Assembly (NCBI GenBank): GCA_963785725.1
Contig: CAWAWS010000009.1
Span: 1-64,000 of the forward strand
DNA length: 64,000 nt
Direction: 5' to 3'
Source of the DNA: an uncultured delta proteobacterium
GTDB taxonomy: Bacteria > Myxococcota_A > Polyangia > Palsa-1104
The position numbers and the translations under genes were made by a program. Below, piece by piece: positions 1,233-25,132 of the stretch (positions are counted from its first letter, which is position 1; every line of letters starts with the position of its first letter). Under the pieces are notes generated by a model. The model was not told the origin of the DNA. It worked only from the letters and a program-made list of their open reading frames with translations, and did not search any database.

Positions 1233-2234
1233 TTACGCGGCGGGGACTTGGCCGCGCTCGCGGAACCACGCGTAGGCTTCCGAGAACGCGTCCATCACCG
1301 ACGTCGGCACAAAGCCGAGCTCGGTGCGCGCCTTGGTGATGTCGGCGTGCTTGCCGCCGTTCAAGATCTTGATCGTGCCCGGCGTAAAGCGCGGCGGCTT
1401 GTCAGGTGCGAACGCGCGCATGAACACGCCCGAGACGTGCGCCAACGGCAACATGACGGCCACGGGAATGCGCAGGCGCGGCTTCTTGACGCCGCACAAC
1501 GCCGACAGATGATCGAGGATTTGATCGAGCGTGAATTGCCCGCCCGACAAGATGTAACGCTGCCCGGGGCGCCCGCGCTCCATCGCCAACAGGTGCCCGG
1601 CGACGACATCGCGCACGGCCACGAACTCGAACTGGCCGGGCACGTAAGCGGGCATGCGGCGATTGGCGAAGTCCAAGATCGTCTGCCCCACCGACGACGG
1701 CTTGTAATCGTGCGCGCCGACGATGCCGCAGGGGTTGACGATGGTGACGTCCTGGCCGCGATGCACGGCGCGATGCACCTCGAGCTCGGCCATCGCCTTC
1801 GACAGCTCGTAATCGAGGTGCGTCTCGAACGGATTGACCGTGAACGTCTCGTCGCTGGGGCCGCCCGACGGATTGTGGCCGACGGCGCCGAACGAGCTGC
1901 AGAACACGGTCTTCGTCACGCCCGCTCTGTCGGCGGCGGCCAAGACGTGGCGCGTGCCGGTGACGTTGGCGTCGAACACCTCCTGCTGCGCGCCGCGCCG
2001 GAGCGAGACGAACGCGGCCACGTGATAGACGCGGTCGCAGCCGGCGACGGCGCGATCGATCGACGCCGCGTCGCGCAAGTCGCCTTCGACGCGCTCGACC
2101 TCGAGGCCGTCGAGCGCGTGGTTGTTCGAGCGCGGGCGCACGAGCGCCTTGACCGCCTCGCCGCGCGCCAACAATGCGCGCACGAGGTTGGCGCCGACGT
2201 GGCCCGATCCACCGGTCACAAAAGTCTTGGGCAT
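1233..2234 (-). CDS. Extended SDR / NAD-dependent epimerase-dehydratase (3beta-HSD/HpnA-like; SdmB-like paralog 2)
   Basis: MPKTFVTGGSGHVGANL Rossmann motif and YELSK catalytic YxxxK. Strongly similar along its length to 12736..13824. ATG at 2234. Confidence 0.85.
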   Translation of the reverse strand: MPKTFVTGGSGHVGANLVRALLARGEAVKALVRPRSNNHALDGLEVERVEGDLRDAASIDRAVAGCDRVYHVAAFVSLRRGAQQEVFDANVTGTRHVLAAADRAGVTKTVFCSSFGAVGHNPSGGPSDETFTVNPFETHLDYELSKAMAELEVHRAVHRGQDVTIVNPCGIVGAHDYKPSSVGQTILDFANRRMPAYVPGQFEFVAVRDVVAGHLLAMERGRPGQRYILSGGQFTLDQILDHLSALCGVKKPRLRIPVAVMLPLAHVSGVFMRAFAPDKPPRFTPGTIKILNGGKHADITKARTELGFVPTSVMDAFSEAYAWFRERGQVPAA

Positions 2235-2251: not shown

Positions 2252-3460
2252 TCAGTTGGCGTGCGCGAGCGAATCGTCGGACGACGGAACCGGCACGGTC
2301 GGCGCCGGCCGCTTGGCCGAGCCCTCCGATTCCTTCAGGTGCGAGCCGGCCAGCGCCGAGCCGATGGCCCAGGTCGCCACGCGGCGAATGAACGGCGAGT
2401 TGTAGGCCATGGCCACGCCGTCGAGCAGCGGCGTCTTGAGCACGCCGCGCACGGCGTGACCGACGAGGAAGCCGGCCGTGAAGCGGCGCCGGCACTGCCA
2501 CTGATAACGCGACCACGCGCGCGCTTCGTCGGCGCCCGTGAGCACGTCGGCCAGCGCGTCGGCGGCGTAGAGCCCGGACTGCATCGCCTGGAAGATGCCT
2601 TCGCCGGTGGCGTTGTGCGTGATGCGCGCCGACTCGCCGAGATGCAGCATGCCGGGCGCCGTCAGATCGCGGATCCACGTCGTGTACGAGATCGGATGGC
2701 CCTTGAGCTTGCCGATCTGCCGCGCGTCGCGCAGCCGCTCCGCGAAGTGGTCGTCGAGGAAGCGGGCGAAGACGTCGCGCACGTTGCGCTCGGTCTTGCG
2801 GCCGTCGGGTCCTTCGCCGTCCATGCAGATGCCGATGTTGCAGCGGGTCTCGGTCTCGGGAAACATCCAGCCGTAGAGCGGCGACAAGTTCTTGTCGAAG
2901 ATCATCTCGAGCGTGCCGGGCAGAAACGGCATGCCTTCCCACCAGCCCATGAGCGTCGAGATCGTCCGTTTGGGCCGCCGGTCGGTCGAGAACATGGCGT
3001 GCGCGCCGTCGGCGGCCAGGACGTAATCGGCGCGGATGTCGCCCTCTTTGCTGCGCACGCCGACGACGCGGCCGTTCTCGCGAATCAGCTCTTGGACCTT
3101 GCAGCCGCCGCGGAACTCGACGCCCAGCGACTGCGCGCGCTCGACGAGCAAGTTGTCGAAGTGCTTGCGCAAGAGGATGACCGACGTGCCCGCTTCGGTC
3201 GTCATGTAGAGCTGGCGCTGGCCCGGCGTGATGACGCGCAAGGAGCCGATGGCGTAGCCGCGGCGCCGCACTTCGTCGCCGATGCCGAGCTCGTCGGTGA
3301 TCTTGAGGCCGTTGGGCGACAGTGCGCTGCCGCACGTCTTCTCGCGCGGGAAGCGATCTTTGTCGACGAGAACGACGTTGCGAATCCCGCGTTGCGCCAG
3401 CCGAACCGCCGCCGCCGCGCCACCCGGGCCCGCGCCGATGATCACCGCACTGTTTCGCAT
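2252..3460 (-). CDS. FAD-dependent oxidoreductase, geranylgeranyl reductase family
   Basis: IIGAGPGG, FPREKTCGSAL, LAADGAH, YGWMFP and GESARITHNATGEGIFQAMQSG motifs. Co-oriented with the SDR, 17 bp apart. Confidence 0.85.
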   Translation of the reverse strand: MRNSAVIIGAGPGGAAAAVRLAQRGIRNVVLVDKDRFPREKTCGSALSPNGLKITDELGIGDEVRRRGYAIGSLRVITPGQRQLYMTTEAGTSVILLRKHFDNLLVERAQSLGVEFRGGCKVQELIRENGRVVGVRSKEGDIRADYVLAADGAHAMFSTDRRPKRTISTLMGWWEGMPFLPGTLEMIFDKNLSPLYGWMFPETETRCNIGICMDGEGPDGRKTERNVRDVFARFLDDHFAERLRDARQIGKLKGHPISYTTWIRDLTAPGMLHLGESARITHNATGEGIFQAMQSGLYAADALADVLTGADEARAWSRYQWQCRRRFTAGFLVGHAVRGVLKTPLLDGVAMAYNSPFIRRVATWAIGSALAGSHLKESEGSAKRPAPTVPVPSSDDSLAHAN

Positions 3461-3573
3461 GGGCTTGTGCGTAACGCGAGACGCACGACCGGTCAAGCCG
3501 CGGCGTGCCGGATATTTCGCGGAGAATTAACCGAGTGGTGAGCTGACTGTATTCGTGGTGAGCTGACTGCCGA

Positions 3574-4990
<1,417 letters not shown>

Positions 4991-5138
4991 AGCGCCGCAA
5001 CATAATCGATGCGGACGCTGTGTCAACGTGCTGGCGCCTACTTAGCGCGATAATTCGCTCGCCGAGCGAGCAGGCGCTCCGTCGCTGTCACAGTCGCCGG
5101 ACGTGCGCTCAGCCACGGGGCCTGATAGAATTAACGCG

Positions 5139-6861: not shown

Positions 6862-7344
6862 TTACGGCGCGAGCAGGCCGCGTAGGCGCGGGACCATTTC
6901 GTCGACGGCGCCATCGCCCTTGACCGAGCCTTCGATCAGCCGACCCGAGAAGTTTCCGTCGGGCTTGGGCAGCGCGAACATGGGAATGAAGCGGGAGACA
7001 TAGCCGGCGACGGCCAGCCGCTCGTTGTCGCGGTCGGCGTCGAACTCGAGCAGCCGCAGCGTCGACAGCTCGGCGTCCAAGCGCCCGGCCGCCGCCGCCT
7101 CGTGAAAGCGCCGGCAGGGCTCGCACCAGGTCGCGCCTTCGTACACGAGGACGCGCTTGCCCTCGCGCTTGGCCTTGTCCATTTCGCGCAGCACGAGCGC
7201 GGCCACGTCGCCTTCGGGCGCCGCCACGAACTCGACGTGCGCCCGCTTGGCCGCCGCTTTCGTCGCCGCCGGTGACGTCGGATTACAGCTCGCCGCCGCG
7301 GCGCCCAGCGTCAACGCCAGCGTCACCGCTTGCTTCCATCGCAT
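6862..7344 (-). CDS. Thioredoxin-like lipoprotein
   Basis: Signal peptide ending AAASC, and a ATWCEPC CxxC motif. Confidence 0.75.
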   Translation of the reverse strand: MRWKQAVTLALTLGAAAASCNPTSPAATKAAAKRAHVEFVAAPEGDVAALVLREMDKAKREGKRVLVYEGATWCEPCRRFHEAAAAGRLDAELSTLRLLEFDADRDNERLAVAGYVSRFIPMFALPKPDGNFSGRLIEGSVKGDGAVDEMVPRLRGLLAP

Positions 7345-7398
7345 CGCTCGACTCTAGCATGCGATCCGCGACCTCGGCGCTTGCGCTATCATGGGCTC

Positions 7399-8163
7399 GT
7401 GCAGCTCCTATCGGCCAACCCGTCGAAGCGCTGGACCGAGCAGCTCGTGCTCGCCTATAGCCCGATTTGGATCGCGGCCATCGGCGCCTGCCAAGTGACG
7501 CATATCTTCGCGCGCTGGGGCGATCTCGGGCATCTGGCGTTCGGCATCTCACTGGCGCTGCCGCTGTGGCTGGTGCCGCTGGTCTGGCCGCCGCCGGCGG
7601 ATCTGAAGCTGCCGCTGCGCGACCGCCACGCCGTGCGCTTCGGCGTCTTCATCGCGACCTGGACGGCGCTGCAAGTCTACTTCGGGAGCGACCTCTTCTT
7701 CGACGTGCTCGGCATGCAGTACCACTTCAACGTCCACTGGCTCTTGCATCGCACGCCGGTCTTCCTCTATTTCGTCACGATCGCCTATTTCAGTACGTAT
7801 TACGTCGTCATGCAGATCGCCTGGCGCGCCTTTCGGACGCGCTGGCCAGAGGCGCCGGCGTGGCTGCGCCTCGGCGTGCTGTGCGCGATCGGCTACGCGG
7901 TCGCGTTCGCCGAGACGGCGGGCATGGCGACCGAGCAGATGCGCGACTATTTCTCCTACCGCGACAAGCGTTTCACGCTGCTGTTCGGGTCGTTGTCTTA
8001 CGGCAGCATCTTCGCGGTGACGTTGCCGCTCGTCTATCGGCTCGACGAGGAGGCGCAGCCCGACGGCCGGCACACGCTCGGCTCGCTGGTGTGGGATGCG
8101 TGTGCCGCGAACACGGTAGTGCTGGTTTTGTACGCACTATTCGCCGCCCTGGCCGTGCGTTGA
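7399..8163 (+). CDS. Cycloeucalenol cycloisomerase (cyclopropylsterol isomerase, CPI1)-like membrane protein
   Basis: Multi-TM protein collinear with plant CPI1 as I recall it: ANPSKRWTE (plant PNPSKRWGE), ADLKLPLRDR, YFGSDLFFDVLGMQYHF (plant YFWTHYFFKVLGASYTF), VAFAET, YFSYRDK, FAVTLPLVYRLDE (plant FIVSFPMFFRMDE), WDACAA. GTG start at 7399. Confidence 0.75.
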   Translation: MQLLSANPSKRWTEQLVLAYSPIWIAAIGACQVTHIFARWGDLGHLAFGISLALPLWLVPLVWPPPADLKLPLRDRHAVRFGVFIATWTALQVYFGSDLFFDVLGMQYHFNVHWLLHRTPVFLYFVTIAYFSTYYVVMQIAWRAFRTRWPEAPAWLRLGVLCAIGYAVAFAETAGMATEQMRDYFSYRDKRFTLLFGSLSYGSIFAVTLPLVYRLDEEAQPDGRHTLGSLVWDACAANTVVLVLYALFAALAVR

Positions 8164-8189: not shown

Positions 8190-9584
8190 ATGCCGCGCGG
8201 ACTCGTAGGCCGTCTCATCGTCAGCTTCGTCCTCGCCGTCGTCTGCTTCTGCGGCTCCACCCTCTATTCCAGCTGGATTTCGCGCACGCTCGACGACGAG
8301 GCGCTCGCCATCGCCGCCAGCGCCGTGCCCGCCATCGAGCACTTGTCGATGGTGCGCGCCGAGCTGCGCCGGCTCGACACGACGGTCTTGCGCTACGAAG
8401 CGCACGCCGGCAACGCCGAGCGGGCCGAGGTGCTGGAGGCGCGCACGCAGCTCGACGACGCGTTCGAGCGCTATTTGTCGCTGCCGGTGCGGTTCGGCGA
8501 CGAGCAGGCGCTGTGGGCCGAGCTGCATCACCGGCTGGCCGAGGTCGACCGCCGCGTCGCGGCCAAGCTCGAAGACGTCGACAACGGCACCAACCGCTAC
8601 GACGACAAGATCAAAGTCGCGACCGACGCCGCGGCCGAGCCGATCCGCCGCATCATCGAGCTCAATGCGCAAAAGGCCCGCGATCTGGCGCTGCGCATGG
8701 AAGAGGGGCGGCGACGCAACGTGCGCGTGGCGCTGCTGCTCGACCTGTTGAGCACGCTGTTCACGCTGACGGCGGCCTGGCTGACGGTGCGCGCGCTGGC
8801 CAGCCATCATCGCGTCGTCGACGAGCGTAACCGCTTGGTGGCGCGCCGGGCCGAGGAGCTGGAGCAGTTCGCCGGCCGCGTCGCTCACGACGTGCTCGGC
8901 CCGCTGTCGTCGACGCGCCTGGCGGTCGGGCTGGCGACGTCGCGGGTGGAAGATCCGGCGGTGCAGCGCGCGCTCGAGCGCGGCCAGCGCGGCATCACGC
9001 GCGTGGCCACGATCGTCGACGGCCTGTTGCGCTTCGCGCGCGCCGGCGCGCACCCCGACCCGGGCGCGGTCACGGTGGTGGCCGGCGTCGTCGAAGGCGT
9101 CGTCGTCGACATGGAGACGGTGGCCGAGGCGGCCGGCGTCACGCTGCGCGCCGCGGCGGTGCCCGATTGCGCCGTCGCCGGCAACGCGGGCGTGCTCGTC
9201 AGCGTCGTCGAGAATTTGGTGCGCAACGCCATCAAGTACATGGGCGAGCGGCCGGTGCGCACGGTGGACCTGCGCGTCCTTCTGCGCGGCGCGATGGTGC
9301 GGCTCGAGGTGCAAGACAGCGGGCCCGGGATCGCGCCGGCGCTGCTCGACACCGTGTTCGATCCGCACGTGCGTGGCCGAACGCAAGGTCAGCCCGGCAT
9401 CGGGCTCGGCCTGGCGACGGTCAAGCGCATCGTCGAGTGCCACGGCGGCAAAGTGGGCGTGCAGTCGAAGCTGGAAGAGGGCAGCCTGTTCTGGTGCGAG
9501 CTGCCGCGCGCCGAGAGCGTCGAGAGCACGCCCGCCGAGGCGCCGGCCGCGCCTGCGCCGCTGCAGAATCGTCGCGAAGAGTAG
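8190..9584 (+). CDS. Membrane sensor histidine kinase (orphan)
   Basis: Two TM segments with a four-helix periplasmic domain. H-box FAGRVAHDVLGPL, N-box NLVRNAIKY, G-boxes DSGPGI and GLGLATVKRIVECHGG. Confidence 0.9.
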   Translation: MPRGLVGRLIVSFVLAVVCFCGSTLYSSWISRTLDDEALAIAASAVPAIEHLSMVRAELRRLDTTVLRYEAHAGNAERAEVLEARTQLDDAFERYLSLPVRFGDEQALWAELHHRLAEVDRRVAAKLEDVDNGTNRYDDKIKVATDAAAEPIRRIIELNAQKARDLALRMEEGRRRNVRVALLLDLLSTLFTLTAAWLTVRALASHHRVVDERNRLVARRAEELEQFAGRVAHDVLGPLSSTRLAVGLATSRVEDPAVQRALERGQRGITRVATIVDGLLRFARAGAHPDPGAVTVVAGVVEGVVVDMETVAEAAGVTLRAAAVPDCAVAGNAGVLVSVVENLVRNAIKYMGERPVRTVDLRVLLRGAMVRLEVQDSGPGIAPALLDTVFDPHVRGRTQGQPGIGLGLATVKRIVECHGGKVGVQSKLEEGSLFWCELPRAESVESTPAEAPAAPAPLQNRREE

Positions 9585-9587
9585 CGG

Positions 9588-11609
9588 TTACGCCGACTGC
9601 GTGAGCCGCGCGTAACGCGCCAAGGCCCACGCCGGGAAATAATCCTTGTAGAGCCGATAGTCGAGCATCGCCGTCGAGAAGAAGACGCCCGACTGCGACT
9701 GCTGCGGCCATTGTCCGTCGGCGAGCTGCCGCGACTGCAGCCACGCGATGGCGCGCGTGATCGCCGGATGCGTCGGCGGCAGTGTCTCCAAGAGCGCCAA
9801 CGCGGCCCACGCCGTCATCGCCGCTTGGCTCTCGGGATGCTCGACATATTCGTCGCGCACGCAGCTGGAGAAGTGCTCGCCCCAGCCGCCGTCGGGCTTC
9901 TGCTTGCCGACGAGCCAGTCGATGGCGCGGGCGATGGCCGGATCGCTCGCCGGCACGCCGGCCGCGCTCAGCGCCTCGACGACGTGGAAGATGGCGTAGG
10001 TGAAGTTGACGCCCCAAAAGCCGAGGTAGCTGCCGTCGGCGAGCTGGCGCGAGCGCAGGAGCGTGACGCCGCGGGCGATGGCGTCGTCGACTTCGCGGCG
10101 CATGAGCGCGGGAAAGACGCGGCGGAAGCGGGCCAGCGCGCCCACGCACGACGCCGTGCACTCGGTGTACGAGCGCTCGGTCATGCAGTTGCCGTACATC
10201 TCGGATGGGTTGATCCACTCGAGGATTTGCGAGCCGCGCCGCGCTTCGTAGCTGCCGAAGCCGCCGTCGACGTTCTGGCGCCGCATGATGAAGCGCGCCG
10301 CCTGCGCCAGCCGCTCGTCGCTGATGCGGCGCACGCCGGCGGGCAAGAGCGCCAAGACCTCATGGCTCGCGTGCAGCTCCATGAGCGACGTCATGGCTTC
10401 GGCGGTGCAATCGGAGACGGCCCAGCGATGCTCGCCGTCGGAGAAGCACCAGCCGCCGACGATGGGCTCGCGGCGCTCGCGCTTGCCGCCGATGAGCTCC
10501 TCTTGCATCTGCGCGTCGCGCAGCCAGTTGTAGGCGCGCGTCAGCGTCGTGGTCGCCGTGTCGCTCGCGCGCTGCGCCGCCGGCGCCTCCAAGATCGCGC
10601 GCATGCCGAAGGCCGTATCCCACGACGTCGAATGCGCGCCGCAGTAGCGAATGCCCTCGGCCTCGTCTTCCCACTTCCACGACTGCATCGCCGCCAGCGA
10701 CGACTCGAACGCGGCGTGCTTCTCGGCGAACAGCGCCAAACAGTTCAACAGGCCGTTGACCGGCGACAGGCCTTGGCCGCGCGTCGCCGTCTGCTCGTAC
10801 AAGATGCGCTCGAAACAGTGGCTGAGCGCGCGCTTGCGCAGCGGCGAGAGCGCGAATTTCTCGTAGCGATAGAGCACGTCGTAAGCCGCGCGCAAGGGAC
10901 GGCTCGGGCGCACGTGCAGGTCGCCGGCGGCGATGTCGTGACGATGGGCCGCGAAGTCGATCTCGTGATACGGCTGCGCATATAGCTCGCGGCGCAAATC
11001 GTCGCCAAGCGCGCCCAAGTCGTGACGAAAACGGCGGCCGTACAAATAACCGATACCCAAATAGATATAACGGGTATGGCAATAGAAGTTATTGGGATGA
11101 ACCGGAAGCCAGTCGGGCAGTAAGAATAACTCGGGCGGAACCGGGTTCATGCCCTCGTATTCGTAGAGCCCGACCATCGCCAGCCAGAACTTGCCCCACG
11201 ACGGCACGGACAGGACGCCGCCCGGCTGCGCGTGCAGCCACTGCCGGGCGCGACGACAGCGCGGATCGTCGGCGGCGACGCCGAGCAGGCGCAAGGCGAC
11301 GTAGGCGAGCGAGGTCATGAAGACGAAGGGGCCGCCTTCGCCGTGCATGGCCCAGCCGCCTTCGGGCGTCTGCGTCGTCTCGTACTGATGGAGAATGCGC
11401 GCTCGCGTGCGCGCGTCGATCGCCGGCAATTTGCCGACGATGTGCTGCACGATCACCCACTGCGAGAGCAGCATCGAGTTCCACACCATCTCCGCTTCCC
11501 AGGCTCCATTCGGGAGCTGGACGGCGGCGAGGTGGTCGATGGCCCGCGTCAGCGAATCGGCTTCGTCAGGCGCGCTGTCTATTTCGGCTTCCGCGCGCTC
11601 GAAAATCAC
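9588..11609 (-). CDS. osc: 2,3-oxidosqualene cyclase (sterol/triterpene synthase)
   Basis: Catalytic VSDCTAEA (OSC type, not the DxDD of squalene-hopene cyclase), PSWGKFWL, FYCHTRYIY, INPSEMYGNCMTERSYTECT, WGVNFTY, and QW repeats (QKPDGGWGE, QLADGQW). The GTG start overlaps the Rieske stop (GTGA, 11606-11609). Confidence 0.95.
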   Translation of the reverse strand: MIFERAEAEIDSAPDEADSLTRAIDHLAAVQLPNGAWEAEMVWNSMLLSQWVIVQHIVGKLPAIDARTRARILHQYETTQTPEGGWAMHGEGGPFVFMTSLAYVALRLLGVAADDPRCRRARQWLHAQPGGVLSVPSWGKFWLAMVGLYEYEGMNPVPPELFLLPDWLPVHPNNFYCHTRYIYLGIGYLYGRRFRHDLGALGDDLRRELYAQPYHEIDFAAHRHDIAAGDLHVRPSRPLRAAYDVLYRYEKFALSPLRKRALSHCFERILYEQTATRGQGLSPVNGLLNCLALFAEKHAAFESSLAAMQSWKWEDEAEGIRYCGAHSTSWDTAFGMRAILEAPAAQRASDTATTTLTRAYNWLRDAQMQEELIGGKRERREPIVGGWCFSDGEHRWAVSDCTAEAMTSLMELHASHEVLALLPAGVRRISDERLAQAARFIMRRQNVDGGFGSYEARRGSQILEWINPSEMYGNCMTERSYTECTASCVGALARFRRVFPALMRREVDDAIARGVTLLRSRQLADGSYLGFWGVNFTYAIFHVVEALSAAGVPASDPAIARAIDWLVGKQKPDGGWGEHFSSCVRDEYVEHPESQAAMTAWAALALLETLPPTHPAITRAIAWLQSRQLADGQWPQQSQSGVFFSTAMLDYRLYKDYFPAWALARYARLTQSA

Positions 11610-12715
11610 GCATCGGCCTTGGCGAGATGCTCTTCCCACTTACGAATCGTCAGCGCCTGGAACTCGTGCACCGCCGGATTGAGCTCGGCGATGGGCTTCT
11701 CGTAGTGACGATTGTAGCCCTCTTGCTCGAGGCGAACCGCGAGGCCGTCCTCGTCGAGCAGCGGCTTGACCTGGAAGATCTTGGCCAGCGGCATCACCAC
11801 TTTGCGCAACAGCCAGCCGGGCAGACGAATCGCGCCGAGGCCGGGAATCTTCACCAGCTCGTGCGCGAAATAGAACAGGAAGATGGCGCGCGTCGTGGTC
11901 TCGTCGATCGGCACCACGAAGCACCAATGCTTGATGAGACCGCCGGTGTTCGAGCGCTGATACGGATATTCGTAAGCCAATTTGATATGGCTGGTATCGG
12001 CATTCTCGCGATTGACGAAATAGGACGTGATGCCGCCGCCACCGACGAGCGTGTCGTATTCGAGGCTGACCATGTCGCCGGTCGATTCCAGCTTGGTCAG
12101 CTTGGCGTCCCAAAAGGGTTTGTACTTGCGGTGCAAATAGGCGTGCGTGAAATCGCTGACGTTGTCCATGACCATCGAGTGATGGCCTTTGACGATCATG
12201 TCGATGGGAATGAGCCCCCACGGATCGCGCCCTTGCAGCTCGGGAATCTCCGGGATCTTGCGCTCGTTGGCCAACGCCGCGTCGCCCGGGAAGATCCAGA
12301 TGAGGCCGTGCTTCACCTGCACCGGGAACTGCTTGACCTTGAACTCCGGCATCTTCTTGTCGAAGAGCTCGTGCGGAATCTTCACGCACTTGCCGCTGCC
12401 GTCATATTGCCAGCCGTGATACGGGCACACGAGCTGGCAGCCCTCGACGTGGCCTTCGGTGAGCTTGAGCTGACGATGGGCGCAGCGGTTCTCGATGGCG
12501 TTCATGGCGCCGTCTTGCCCGCGGAAGATGGCGATCGACTGCTTCCACCAGACGACTTCTTTGACTTCGCCGCGCTTGACGTTCTTGTCCCACTCGACCG
12601 CGTACCAATAGTCGGGGTTCATGCCAGCGGCGCGCGCCTTCTGACGACGATTGGTGGCTTCGTCGAACGACGGCGGACCGCTCCGCAACGTCACCAGCTT
12701 CACGGGCTCTTTCAT
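11606..12715 (-). CDS. Rieske non-heme iron oxygenase, putative sterol C-4 methyl oxidase (SdmA-like)
   Basis: Rieske ligands NRCAHR...CPYHGW and mononuclear Fe motif DNVSDFTHAYLH. Coupled to osc. GGGAG RBS upstream of ATG 12715. Confidence 0.8.
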   Translation of the reverse strand: MKEPVKLVTLRSGPPSFDEATNRRQKARAAGMNPDYWYAVEWDKNVKRGEVKEVVWWKQSIAIFRGQDGAMNAIENRCAHRQLKLTEGHVEGCQLVCPYHGWQYDGSGKCVKIPHELFDKKMPEFKVKQFPVQVKHGLIWIFPGDAALANERKIPEIPELQGRDPWGLIPIDMIVKGHHSMVMDNVSDFTHAYLHRKYKPFWDAKLTKLESTGDMVSLEYDTLVGGGGITSYFVNRENADTSHIKLAYEYPYQRSNTGGLIKHWCFVVPIDETTTRAIFLFYFAHELVKIPGLGAIRLPGWLLRKVVMPLAKIFQVKPLLDEDGLAVRLEQEGYNRHYEKPIAELNPAVHEFQALTIRKWEEHLAKADA

Positions 12716-12735
12716 GGTCGCTCCCAAAGTATTTC

Positions 12736-13824
12736 TCAGCCGGCGGCGCGCTTGTCGGACGCGGGCTTGCCGTCCGTCGCCGTCGTCGACTGCATGACGT
12801 CCGCGCGCGGATTGTGGATGTCGCCGCGATTCGCAAAGAACTGATAGGCCTCGCGCACGGCGTCTTCAATAGGCGTCGGGCGGAAGCCGAGCTCGCGCTG
12901 GGCCTTACCGGTGTCGGCGTGGCGATTGAGCCGCAAGACGCGAATGGCGCCCGGCGTCAGCCGCTGCGGGCGCGAGGGAAACAGCGTCGACTGCACGAAC
13001 TGCGAGATCGGCGCCACCATCGCGAGCAGGCCCGCCGGCAAGCGACGCGGCCGCTTCTTGCCCGTGACGCGCTCGAAGATGTCCATGAGCGTGTCCATCG
13101 AGTGGAAGCCGCTCGAGATGATGTATTTGTGGCCGGTGCGGCCTTTTTCCATCGCCAACACGTGGCCGTTGGCGATGTCGCGCGCAGCCACGAACTCGAA
13201 GCCGCCCGGGATGTACGCGCGCAATTTGCCGTTGGCGAAGTCGCGCAAGACCGCGCCCATGCGCGACGGCATGAAGTCGTTGGGCCCCAAGATCGCGCAC
13301 GACGTGGCGATGACGACGTCTTGCCCTTCGGCGACGGCGCGCAGGCACTCGAGCTCGACCGCCTGCTTCGACTTCTCGTAGGGCATGACGTGGTCGAACG
13401 GATTGAAGGGCTCGGTCTCGTCGCTGGGGCGACCGTCGGTGCGATGGCCGACGGCGCTGAAGCTGCCGGTGACGACGACGCGGCCGACGCCGGCTTCGCG
13501 CGCGGCCGCGAGTAAATTCTTGGTGCCGACGACGTTGTTCTCGAACAGCGCCTGCTCTTGCCCGTCGACGGTCGAGATCTGCGCGGCGCAGTGGAAGATG
13601 CGATCGATGCCTTTGACGGCGGCGCGCAAGGACTCGGGCTCGCGCAGATCGCCGTAGACGACTTCGACGTCAATGCCGGCGAAGGCGGCCTGGTTGGCTT
13701 GCGCTTCCTCGCGCCGCGCCAGCGCGCGAATCGAGACTCCGCTTCCCGCCTTAGCGTCAGCCAATAGGCGGCGAATCAAGTTCGCGCCCAGGTGGCCGGC
13801 ACCGCCCGTGACCAGGACCTTCAT
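12736..13824 (-). CDS. Extended SDR / NAD-dependent 3beta-HSD-decarboxylase-like protein (SdmB-like)
   Basis: MKVLVTGGAGHLGANL and YEKSK (YxxxK). First gene of the SDR-Rieske-OSC operon. Confidence 0.8.
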   Translation of the reverse strand: MKVLVTGGAGHLGANLIRRLLADAKAGSGVSIRALARREEAQANQAAFAGIDVEVVYGDLREPESLRAAVKGIDRIFHCAAQISTVDGQEQALFENNVVGTKNLLAAAREAGVGRVVVTGSFSAVGHRTDGRPSDETEPFNPFDHVMPYEKSKQAVELECLRAVAEGQDVVIATSCAILGPNDFMPSRMGAVLRDFANGKLRAYIPGGFEFVAARDIANGHVLAMEKGRTGHKYIISSGFHSMDTLMDIFERVTGKKRPRRLPAGLLAMVAPISQFVQSTLFPSRPQRLTPGAIRVLRLNRHADTGKAQRELGFRPTPIEDAVREAYQFFANRGDIHNPRADVMQSTTATDGKPASDKRAAG

Positions 13825-13994
13825 GCGCTCATTTGATTATCGCCGAAAGTGGCGGTTGTCCAGCGAAAGCTAGGTGCGAAATCGCACGAAACCTGCGCAA
13901 CACAAGGGTTTTCCGCGCTTGAAACCGCACGAGTGTTGACTGTGCACGCGCTTTTATGGCCAATTGCGCCAAACCATCAAAGTCAGGGTGACGA
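13825..13994. promoter_or_regulatory. Divergent promoter region between the SDR-Rieske-OSC operon and the sterol methyltransferase
   Basis: 170 bp, lower-GC intergenic segment between divergent starts. TTGACT (-35-like) at 13936-13941; the -10 match is weak. Confidence 0.45.
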
Positions 13995-15023
13995 ATGACG
14001 GAGAAGCCGCAGCTGACCGACCTCGTGCAGACCTCGCTGGCCAACGACGCGGTCAAGAACGTCGTCGACGAGTATCACTCGTTCCACGCCGGCACCGTCG
14101 AGACGCGCAAGGCGAACTACACGCAGATGGTGAACGACTATTACGATCTCGTGACCGACTTCTACGAGTTCGGTTGGGGGCAGTCGTTTCACTTCGCGCC
14201 GCGCCATAAAGGCGAGTCTTTCGATGCGTCCTTGGCGCGTCACGAGTTCAACCTCGCGCTGCGCCTCGGCCTCAAGCCCGGCATGAAAGTGCTCGACGTC
14301 GGCTGCGGCATCGGCGGGCCGATGCGCGCCATCGCGCGCTTCTCGGGCGCGACCATCGTCGGCGTCAACAACAACGACTATCAGATCAAGCGCGGCACCA
14401 AGCAGAACCAAGACGCCGGGCTCGCCAATCGCTGCTCGTTCATGAAGGCCGACTTCATGAAGCTGCCCGTGCCCGACAAGAGCTACGACGGCGTCTACGC
14501 CATCGAAGCGACCTGCCACGCGCCCGACAAGGTCAAGCTGTTCACCGAGCTCTTCCGCGTCATGAAAGACGGCGCCGAGTTTGCCGGTTACGAATGGTGC
14601 CTGACGAAGAAGTACGACGCCGGCAACCCCGAGCACCGCGCGATCAAGAAGGGCATCGAGGAGGGCGACGCGCTGCCGGACATTTGGTACGAGAAGGACG
14701 TCGTCGACGCGCTCAAGCAGTCGGGCTTCGAGGTCATCAACGCGCTGGACATGGCGCCGCAGTCCGACCACGAGACGCCGTGGTACTTGCCGCTCTCGGG
14801 CAAAATGTCGCTGCAGGGCTTCAAGCACACCGAGCTCGGCCGCATCGCCACCAACGCGTTCGTGCGCGTCCTCGAAGCGGCGAAGGTCGCGCCCAAAGGC
14901 TCGACGGCGGTGTCGTCGTTCTTGAACGCGGGCGCCAAGGCGCTCGTGCGCGGCGGCGAGACCGGCATCTTCACGCCCATGTTCTTCTTCCACGTCCGCA
15001 AGCCCGCCTCGTCCAAAGCGTAA
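13995..15023 (+). CDS. smt: Sterol C-24 methyltransferase (ERG6/SMT1 family)
   Basis: All SMT signature regions are present: YYDLVTDFYEFGWGQSFHFAP, VLDVGCGIGGPMRAIARFSG, NNNDYQIKRG, YAIEATCHAP, YEWCLT, IEEGDALP, PWYLPL, GGETGIFTPMFFF. Confidence 0.93.
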   Translation: MTEKPQLTDLVQTSLANDAVKNVVDEYHSFHAGTVETRKANYTQMVNDYYDLVTDFYEFGWGQSFHFAPRHKGESFDASLARHEFNLALRLGLKPGMKVLDVGCGIGGPMRAIARFSGATIVGVNNNDYQIKRGTKQNQDAGLANRCSFMKADFMKLPVPDKSYDGVYAIEATCHAPDKVKLFTELFRVMKDGAEFAGYEWCLTKKYDAGNPEHRAIKKGIEEGDALPDIWYEKDVVDALKQSGFEVINALDMAPQSDHETPWYLPLSGKMSLQGFKHTELGRIATNAFVRVLEAAKVAPKGSTAVSSFLNAGAKALVRGGETGIFTPMFFFHVRKPASSKA

Positions 15024-15329: not shown

Positions 15330-16400
15330 TCAGTATACGAACGGAATCATGCGAAACCGCGCGCGCTGACAATACTCGCGCCACAGCTCGCCATACTTCG
15401 CCGCGCACCGCTGCTCGTCGCGCCACGCGCGATGCGTGAACAAACAAACGAGCCAGAACGGCAGCAAATAGGGGACGACCGAATCGAACCCCGTGCAAAT
15501 GGTCCACGAGAAATAGACCATCAGCTCGCCGGTGTAATTGAGCTTGCGGCCGATTCCCCAAAACCCCGACACCAATAGTCGGCCGCCGACCGTCTCCGGC
15601 GTCTTCCCCCAAATCGGCGCTTTGGGGTTTTCCTTGTACTGATGCTTCTGCTCGTTCGACCCGCGAAACAGCCAGAATCCGCAGGCGAACAGCAGCGCCA
15701 GCGCCGCCACTTCATAAGCCGGCATGGGCGCCGTATTGCGCAGCATGTACCAGCCGCAAATGCAGTAGAAGAACGGGACGACCACGTAATCGCCCCACAC
15801 CAGCATGAAGCCGAAGTTCTCGGCGATCACGTCCCAGGTATGCAGCATCCCGTATTCGAATTGAAAGTAATTGAAGATGTAAATGGTGAAGAACGTCTCG
15901 TATAGCGCCATGCGCGTCGTCAAATGGCCGAGCTCTTGATACTGCATGGCCGCGAATGAAAGATTGAGCACCCATAAGCCCATCAACGACGGCATATAAG
16001 CGAACATCTTCAGATCGACGCCCCATAAATCGGGGTTGAGCTCGGGGCCGAACCAGAAATCGTGGAGCACGCCTTTGTCGCTGTGCTTGCGACCGACGGC
16101 GTAGAGCCAGCCGGTATGCACGAACGCGAACACGTTGCCGACGACGAGCAGCGGCCAGAACAGCTCGTTGACGCGCGCCAGATTGCCGATCTTCGTAAAC
16201 TGCACGACGGCGAGCCCGACGGCGAGCACGATGAGCAAGAGAAAGCCGTTGAGCTTGTAAGTCTTGCGCGTGCCGTCGCGCAGCTGCTGCCCTTGCTTGA
16301 GCGGCCCCGGCAAGAACTTGCGCAGGACGAAGAGCACCGCCACGAAACCAATATAAATGGCCGTCGCCGATAAGAGGTTTTGCACTGTGATGGATTGCAT
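15330..16400 (-). CDS. ERG4/ERG24-family sterol reductase, most like Delta14 (C-14) reductase (plant FACKEL type)
   Basis: TYKLNG, DFWFGPELNP, WDVIAENFGFMLVWGD, FRGSNEQKHQYKENPKAPIWGK...GGRLLVSGFWGIGRKLNYTGE and HRAWRDEQRCAAKYGELWREYC...MIPFVY. Compact, 356 aa. Confidence 0.88.
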   Translation of the reverse strand: MQSITVQNLLSATAIYIGFVAVLFVLRKFLPGPLKQGQQLRDGTRKTYKLNGFLLLIVLAVGLAVVQFTKIGNLARVNELFWPLLVVGNVFAFVHTGWLYAVGRKHSDKGVLHDFWFGPELNPDLWGVDLKMFAYMPSLMGLWVLNLSFAAMQYQELGHLTTRMALYETFFTIYIFNYFQFEYGMLHTWDVIAENFGFMLVWGDYVVVPFFYCICGWYMLRNTAPMPAYEVAALALLFACGFWLFRGSNEQKHQYKENPKAPIWGKTPETVGGRLLVSGFWGIGRKLNYTGELMVYFSWTICTGFDSVVPYLLPFWLVCLFTHRAWRDEQRCAAKYGELWREYCQRARFRMIPFVY

Positions 16401-23112: not shown

Positions 23113-24969
<1,857 letters not shown>

Positions 24970-25000
24970 TAGGCTCTCTAATCTCCAGCACGCGGAGGCG

Positions 25001-25016
25001 AGCAATCGCCGTGCCG
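25001..25016 (-). promoter_or_regulatory. sigma54 (RpoN) -24/-12 promoter of the tes-like gene
   Basis: The minus strand reads CGGCAC-GGCGA-TTGCT (consensus TGGCAC-N5-TTGCW), 31 nt upstream of the ATG at 24969. Confidence 0.7.
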
Positions 25017-25056
25017 CGTCCAACTCCCCGAAAACGTAAGCGCCACATAGCACGGT

Positions 25057-25132
25057 TGCACCGTTTGGTGCACGCCGCCGCGCCTCAGGACCAGATTCCC
25101 CGTCGCTGAGCAAAGATGCACGAAAATGTACA
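25057..25132. promoter_or_regulatory. Two putative enhancer-binding-protein sites upstream of the sigma54 promoter
   Basis: Palindrome TGCACC-GTTT-GGTGCA at 25057-25072 and a related TGCACGAAAATGTACA at 25117-25132. NtrC-like half sites, but with one base less spacing than the NtrC consensus. Confidence 0.5.

Follow-up and report, generated by a model that had tools for sequence, protein, structure and literature searches.

The stretch of DNA analysed here (the window, 64,000 nucleotides) holds a sterol C-24 methyltransferase (SMT) gene head-to-head with an sdmB-sdmA-osc operon, an arrangement that raises the question of whether the enzyme is functional, which sterols it would methylate and how often, and whether it is controlled together with their synthesis. 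The reading we favour, with a probability of roughly 0.6, is that an intact SMT adds one or two carbons to the lanosterol-derived sterols of its own host, and that a palindrome in the intergenic spacer serves as the operator for a GAF-PAS histidine kinase and NtrC-type regulator pair. In 2023 bacterial SMTs encoded beside osc and sdmAB were reported together with assays of their activity (PMC10070321); taken by itself the enzyme comes as no surprise, and the new part is the spacer palindrome with its candidate regulator. The host is a free-living soil lineage of Polyangia (Myxococcota) with a predicted de novo sterol pathway; among named genome records the closest are MAGs of uncultured Polyangia/Myxococcales (79–82%), and the two metagenome runs with the largest word shares are from soil.

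The methyltransferase and its relatives

The SMT open reading frame (13995–15023, plus strand) begins with ATG and encodes 342 amino acids without an internal stop. Its translation matches the Pfam profiles Sterol_MT_C (PF08498, E 9.5e-25; residues 274–337, 14814–15005) and Methyltransf_11 (PF08241, E 4.5e-19), and carries Regions I–IV, including the sterol-binding motif YEFGWGQSFHF of Region I (residues 57–67, 14163–14195) and the SAM-binding motif DVGCGIGGP of Region II (14295–14321, within LDVGCGIGGP), together with the segments YAIEATCHAP and KDGAEFAGYEW. None of the 25 residues conserved in functional SMTs is missing, these being taken from the residue numbers in the main text of Brown & Welander 2025 (bioRxiv 10.64898/2025.12.19.695621). 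Yeast numbering is obtained by adding 24 to the SMT residue, an offset that is constant over 19 listed residues from 74 to 268; it places the Tyr and Phe of Region I at yeast positions 81 and 83, and Asp225 (14667–14669) at position 249. A preliminary description, made from the sequence alone, had called the gene intact with every signature region, naming the Region I motif and a C-terminal Sterol_MT_C-like segment, and in this it is borne out.

Codon usage is host-like with high GC3, as had also been proposed: GC3 is 0.93 (92nd percentile among 1856 composition-filtered long ORFs of the genome) and a CAI-like index lies at the 98th percentile of the same set. The gene is under purifying selection, because dN/dS against five relatives is 0.24–0.31 (a simple count, in which dS is probably underestimated). 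No SMT structure was found among the PDB sequence matches, and a scan 3' of the gene found no terminator above chance. By its sequence the gene is an intact SMT homolog of an already known bacterial kind, and we consider it very probable that the product is catalytically active. Twenty of 24 bacterial SMTs tested were active, including two from the sterol cluster of a Sandaracinus MAG (Brown 2023, PMC10070321), and four SMTs with all the conserved residues were inactive in vitro (Brown & Welander 2025).

The best 120 homologs are 62–99% identical and many are named sterol 24-C-methyltransferase by JGI; single stops are flagged inside some distant matches. Those of the best 50%-cluster matches that carry names are SMTs, not tocopherol or other methyltransferases. 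The protein had been described as eukaryote-like, and it is indeed homologous to eukaryotic enzymes (identities of 56% with a rice cycloartenol-C-24-methyltransferase-1-like protein, 48% with an enzyme from a chytrid and 46% with one from an oomycete), but the sequences closest to it are bacterial, as is the clade in which it is nested. This placement comes from a midpoint-rooted FastTree phylogeny of 188 rows, all of them SMT sequences, which took in 105 of 150 representatives with at least 270 aligned residues and 20 of the 120 close homologs, and in which sponge-symbiont loci were thinned. The SMT falls in a 47-row clade (SH 0.99) inside an 80-row clade (SH 0.97), the named members of which are bacterial and outside which the rice SMT1-like protein lies, names having been looked up for 20 representatives and most outer rows being unlabelled. 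A recent eukaryotic donor is rejected, given that the gene nests among bacterial SMTs and has host-like codon use.

SMT genes occur in 16 of 41 genomes of the order and in all four of the same genus, and the cyclase in 34 of 39 in-order genomes; sparse SMTs in myxobacteria had already been noted (Hoshino & Gaucher 2021, PMC8237579). The head-to-head layout with sdmB is found in seven of the 16 SMT-positive genomes, all in the family of the window and at 79–100% identity. At genus and family level the long residence previously suggested is upheld by the presence in all same-genus genomes and by dN/dS. The trees of SMT and oxidosqualene cyclase (OSC) are broadly congruent (Spearman 0.62 over 66 non-independent pairs); this falls short of showing strict co-inheritance, because deep support is weak and one genome (G021) is discordant.

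Predicted sterol pathway and methylated product

The operon facing the SMT lies on the minus strand and comprises genes for an SdmB-like C-4 demethylation reductase (12736–13824; NF052578, E 7e-86, 289 bits), an SdmA-like Rieske C-4 methyl oxidase (11606–12727; NF052579, E 8e-122, 407 bits) and the OSC (9588–11639; TIGR03463, 835 bits), each scoring under its curated cut-off (600, 600 and 851 respectively). Alignment to human lanosterol synthase (1w6k) reads His449 and Val453 in the cyclase; Val453 recurs in all 19 further in-order OSCs where the motif is readable (one of 20 is unreadable), and its presence went with lanosterol in every strain of Wei et al. 2016 (PMC4919349). Because of Val453 the cyclase is a predicted lanosterol synthase, with lanosterol as the predicted entry sterol. 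Cycloartenol is disfavoured as entry sterol, Ile453 being the residue of cycloartenol synthase. His449 fits oddly with a lanosterol cyclase, as does the gene for a CPI1-like (cycloeucalenol cycloisomerase-like) membrane protein (7330–8163, plus strand), many close homologs of which are named cycloeucalenol cycloisomerase by JGI; a Pfam search with this protein gave no match, and its ESM Atlas matches are unnamed clusters only.

Beyond the SMT lies an ERG24-like C-14 reductase gene (15330–16400, minus strand), the sole ERG4/ERG24 family gene found in the assembly; with 54% identity to cluster ERG24 and 29–33% to ERG4-like proteins, an ERG4 or DHCR7 role for it is disfavoured, and a search of the assembly found no ERG4 or DHCR7 homolog. 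Towards the contig start are a geranylgeranyl-reductase (GGR) family gene (2252–3496, minus strand; TIGR02032 above cut-off), a candidate Bsr-type C-24 reductase with no named Bsr among its best 120 homologs, and a second SdmB/SdmC-like reductase gene (1233–2234, minus strand; NF052578, 425 bits; 46% to the first copy), which recalls SdmC of E. salina (PMC10202945). Outside the window the genome holds a mevalonate-squalene operon (contig C18), squalene epoxidase (SMO; C15), CYP51 (C6) and two EBP-family genes; an ERG2 search with PF04622 found no match in the genome, and none in the controls either. Squalene synthesis, SMO, OSC, CYP51, ERG24 and SdmAB are all represented in the genome, which carries the genes for the de novo synthesis assumed by the preliminary description.

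SMO and CYP51 each contain a frameshift in the present assembly, but each is intact in four of five relatives. Frameshifts affect 5 of the 37 genes testable against relatives, including glycyl-tRNA synthetase (3527–5026, minus strand), a sign of indel errors. Four metagenome runs were compared at the SMO locus, three of which cover SMO with close contigs, and contigs from two of these three lack one base at the break. Because of the frequency of frameshifts, the intact relatives and the one-base difference in the run contigs, the SMO and CYP51 frameshifts are likely to be assembly errors. At the contig start (1–1269) a type II/IV secretion ATPase fragment and WD40 repeats lie in overlapping frames, a possible misassembly.

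Some further features of the cluster and genome were observed. A membrane histidine kinase gene 3' of the CPI1-like gene (8190–9584, plus strand) converges on osc in four of five close relatives, and sdmA is missing between sdmB and osc in three relatives (L003, L004, L018). Eight kilobases from the sterol cluster, a radical SAM protein (23113–25113, minus strand) is most like the tetraether synthase Tes (NF045702, E 1.7e-101, under cut-off). Elsewhere in the genome (G000:C39:384484-387652, L102) 3-beta-HSD-like, steroid 5-alpha-reductase (PF02544) and EBP-family genes form a group that could give stanols.

From the mevalonate-squalene operon, SMO, the cyclase, CYP51, ERG24, SdmA and the two SdmB-like reductases the host would obtain Delta24 sterols, to C-24 of which the SMT would transfer the methyl group of SAM, giving 24-methylene and possibly 24-ethylidene sterols. 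Given that no ERG4 or DHCR7 homolog was found, the double bonds of side chain and rings may be retained unless the GGR-family reductase reduces them. The substrates of the SMT are in all likelihood endogenous sterols.

The number of carbons added had been thought unreadable from the sequence, a view that holds for one against two and gives way for three. Gly249 is reported as necessary for 24-isopropyl (C30) synthesis: C30 was made by none of 11 substitutions at this position in one enzyme, nor by G249D in a second, and all four known propylating SMTs carry Gly249, a rule that rests on these two mutated enzymes in one preprint (Brown & Welander 2025). Of the two features sought in a propylating SMT, Gly249 and a Phe at position 81 and/or 83, the window SMT has the second (Phe83, with Tyr81) and in place of the first has Asp; the column at position 249 is Gly in 4 of 87 locus SMTs. 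Three methylations are therefore unlikely, and it is highly improbable that a C30 product is formed. An enzyme that makes 24-isopropyl sterols all the same could appeal to Phe83, which raises C30 output in a propylating SMT (Brown & Welander 2025), and would have to do so with Asp249 where the known examples have Gly; we give this very little credence. The SMT thus likely adds one or two carbons, the choice between them being unreadable from the sequence.

A separate doubt concerns quantity, since methylated sterols would be a minor product in vivo if a Bsr-like reductase removed the Delta24 bond first, leaving sterols of the cholesterol type to dominate, or if prey sterols were mainly modified. 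A Bsr-type reductase acts on C-24 early in Sandaracinus and Minicystis (Lee & Welander, 10.1101/2024.11.01.621555); the GGR gene, 10.5 kb from the SMT, could by analogy compete for the Delta24 bond, and SMT genes are patchy where the OSC is common. The purifying selection on the SMT, its codon index in the top percentiles and its conserved linkage to the cyclase operon speak against a minor role, which we regard as improbable. We retain the reading of an SMT that would add one or two carbons to home-made sterols.

One SMT in the comparison set differs at position 249. The locus L028 (9925–10938; genome G042, also in cluster P0084) encodes an SMT 64% identical to that of the window and nested in its clade; the 25 conserved residues are all there, along with Phe81, Phe83 and Gly249. 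The genome (titled Pseudomonadota) has an sdmB-CYP51-sdmA-OSC-SMO-ERG4/24 cluster on another contig. We regard it as a candidate for de novo synthesis of 24-isopropyl sterols by a non-sponge bacterium.

The spacer palindrome and its candidate regulator

Between the start codons of sdmB and SMT lies a divergent spacer of exactly 170 bp (13825–13994), the distance given earlier between the SMT and the SDR-Rieske-OSC operon. It contains the 14-base palindrome GTGCGAAATCGCAC (13874–13887; consensus GTGCGA-N2-TCGCAC), a candidate operator 49 nt from the sdmB start and 107 nt from the SMT start. An alignment of seven spacers has two invariant blocks, GTCCAGC and GTGCG-N3-TCGCAC, with 11 of the 14 palindrome columns invariant; the 14-mer occurs in all seven head-to-head genomes, exactly in five to six (that of the window among them) and with one mismatch in one. 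The first block (13858–13864; TGGAC on the minus strand), invariant in seven of seven, is a possible −35 element of an sdmB promoter, and TTGACT (13936–13941, plus strand; TTGAC in five of the seven aligned spacers) a possible −35 of an SMT promoter; a strict sigma-70 scan of the spacer found no promoter and no matching −10 for TTGACT.

Two exact copies of the palindrome occur in the 8.9-Mb genome, the other preceding the IDI-2/mevalonate/squalene operon. No site was found before SMO, CYP51, ERG24, CPI or GGR in this genome (best 5–6 mismatches), nor in front of its FPP synthase gene, and none of four intact CYP51 loci of relatives has one. All 51 exact sites with a free centre in 39 in-order genomes were examined, against 27 for a reversed control and a Markov expectation of 0.8 per genome. 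Thirty-one precede sterol, isoprenoid or MMPL-transporter genes: sdmB (7), IDI-2 (8), FPP synthase (5), squalene epoxidase (3) and MMPL transporter (8), the last called by Pfam in two cases, by the same N-terminal translation in four and by flank or frame likeness in two. Once discovery-type sites are left out, 24 of 44 remain pathway-linked. Among the others, one precedes a hydrolase gene inside the sterol cluster and 19 lie at other or coding places, about the number that the reversed control predicts. One Pfam-confirmed MMPL protein carries a weak sterol-sensing-domain match, and the bacterial sterol transporter BstA is an MMPL protein (PMC10942540).

With an A/T centre the motif outnumbers its reversed pattern by 16 to 0 in one count and 46 to 2 in another, the reversed control including words of the TAG/CTA type, of which these genomes may have few; the case is therefore made on site positions and not on counts, and the genomes are related MAGs, not independent samples. 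Outside the order, 20 exact A/T-centred sites were found in 17 of 173 genomes and all were inspected; eight lie at a kinase-regulator pair, one before IDI-2, and 11 have no evident pathway link. When the choice of loci started from a cyclase-linked protein and not from the motif, five of eight new ones had a site (at most one mismatch), and the three that had none have no cyclase alongside. That the palindrome is a pathway operator appears on these positions highly likely.

Further observations stand beside this distribution. Two genus-specific conserved exact palindromes (L142–L147; L152, L153, L165, L168) have no recognised pathway gene nearby and may be further regulon members or chance. 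An MMPL transporter operon of this genome (G000:C16:402360-408056), 44% to the site-bearing MMPL of relatives and without a convincing palindrome, is a possible Bst-type sterol exporter. In another set of loci (L226–L229, L234, L237–L246) a peptidase-U32-family gene (PF01136) lies directly 5' of an Ile453 cyclase gene and behind the same palindrome, the pair being preceded in L234 by a chorismate mutase/DAHP synthase-like gene. Three of the five U32-cyclase genomes lack a squalene epoxidase match; the U32-family protein is a candidate oxygen-independent epoxidase, and no paper was found on such a gene beside a cyclase as epoxidase.

A candidate for the binding protein is suggested by what lies behind the sites. 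In the order, genes for a GAF-PAS histidine kinase, which has no clear membrane helix, and an NtrC-type regulator are located between the IDI-2 operon and FPP synthase, the regulator in 32 of 39 genomes; in this assembly its gene is frameshifted before the HTH. The regulator has receiver, sigma-54 AAA+ and Fis-type HTH domains and scores below every NCBIfam equivalog cut-off. In other orders the pair (regulator identity 44–51%) lies across the site from a cyclase operon, a squalene operon or an SdmB-like gene, and because the site precedes the pair beside such genes we take the pair as candidate regulator. The inverted repeat precedes the operon of the regulator itself, before the kinase, in five in-order genomes and at eight outside-order sites; a site before a regulator's own operon that survives a change of the neighbouring gene is a usual mark of autoregulation. 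Among 15 copies of the regulator, which share 44–100% overall identity, 14 have the recognition helix SR(F/Y)(A/Q)LLRR, whereas 11 paralogs in this genome all lack it; one site-bearing genome (L138) has a different helix, and in another (G003) no regulator match was found. The window spacer has no −24/−12 element (best 6 of 11); scores of 9–11 of 11 occur at 5 of 43 sites, against 7% in shuffles, and a second degenerate site lies near 14 of 43, against 9.5%. Binding of the palindrome by the NtrC-type regulator seems to us reasonably probable.

How far this control extends to the SMT, and whether the NtrC-type regulator exerts it, are the points at which other explanations compete. The preliminary description held that the SMT is co-regulated with de novo synthesis; the conserved palindrome supports shared regulation, and for the SMT itself co-regulation is inferred from position only, because the operator is retained at sdmB even where there is no SMT. 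The palindrome may instead control sdmB-sdmA-osc alone, with the SMT, still active on home-made sterols, under its own promoter: the site is nearer to sdmB than to the SMT, is kept before sdmB in two genomes that have no SMT at that place, and is lacking from nine of ten SMT genes elsewhere. Yet the head-to-head layout is kept in seven genomes, and the tenth of those SMT genes, that of L037 in another family, has a 1-mismatch site 58 nt in front of it away from sdmB (sites of at most one mismatch within 1.5 kb being counted). We judge a separate promoter possible though rather unlikely, and give slightly better than even odds to SMT transcription depending on the palindrome.

Another factor, such as a sterol-sensing repressor, might instead bind a true pathway operator, the kinase-regulator operon being merely one of its targets. 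The FPP synthase sites, about 10 nt from the start codon and overlapping the ribosome-binding region, are placed as for a repressor, and most sites lack a sigma-54 promoter; but enhancer-binding proteins can also repress, as PexR reportedly does. Moreover, the site keeps its place at the kinase-regulator pair from order to order even where the divergently transcribed gene is a different one, the recognition helix is preserved, and among 23 non-genic sites (at most two mismatches) the sole other regulator is the product of a gene behind a 2-mismatch site, which we take to be LysR-like. This alternative is accordingly, in our estimation, somewhat less likely still than a separate SMT promoter. 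We return to the pair as binding factor, through which the sterol pathway would be coordinated. Taken further, the same evidence would describe a dedicated Polyangia sterol regulon, read by a cytoplasmic GAF-PAS kinase and the NtrC-type regulator as a counterpart of SREBP and comprising mevalonate, FPP, squalene, epoxidase, cyclase, demethylase, transporter and, here, SMT genes, in a free-living soil lineage with de novo production of C28/C29 sterols; we offer this tentatively, at a little under even odds.

Comparison with known systems

The closest described counterparts are the SMTs 1 and 2 of the marine Sandaracinus MAG (PMC10070321), which likewise have two Pfam domains, a myxobacterial host and linkage to osc and sdmAB, with CYP51 and ERG24 in the genome as here. 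Compared by the description in that source, the window SMT differs in being single-copy, from a soil lineage and head-to-head with sdmB, and the window lacks an SMO-OSC fusion and has CPI1-like and GGR genes nearby. The propylating Chl_SMT and Ap_sym_SMT (Brown & Welander 2025) share with it the 25 conserved residues and Phe83, whereas it has Asp where they require Gly249. With plant SMT1 and fungal ERG6 it has Regions I–IV in common, but it nests in a bacterial clade and its Region I has Phe83 and Gln. No bacterial isolate has yet been shown to make ergostane and stigmastane biomarker sterols (PMC10070321); the SMT adds a widespread, terrestrial, free-living lineage to their possible bacterial sources.

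Among regulators, the candidate resembles enhancer-binding proteins of the NtrC/AtoC type in its domains, in the PAS kinase upstream and in the inverted repeat before its own operon, and departs from them in its presumed targets, which are isoprenoid and sterol genes mostly without a −24/−12 promoter. Bacteria lack SREBP, and the proteins regulating bacterial sterol synthesis are given as unknown by Lee & Welander 2025 (PMC12004948). No operator or regulator of bacterial sterol synthesis was found in the open-licence PMC and bioRxiv literature; a 14-bp site and a named candidate regulator make such control testable without culturing the host. In eukaryotes, SREBP acts through SRE, one DNA element before the sterol pathway genes. 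The candidate bacterial system has no homology to it, yet likewise places one element before mevalonate, FPP synthase, epoxidase, cyclase-operon and sterol-transport genes, and if true, the palindrome regulon would be the bacterial counterpart of SREBP control.
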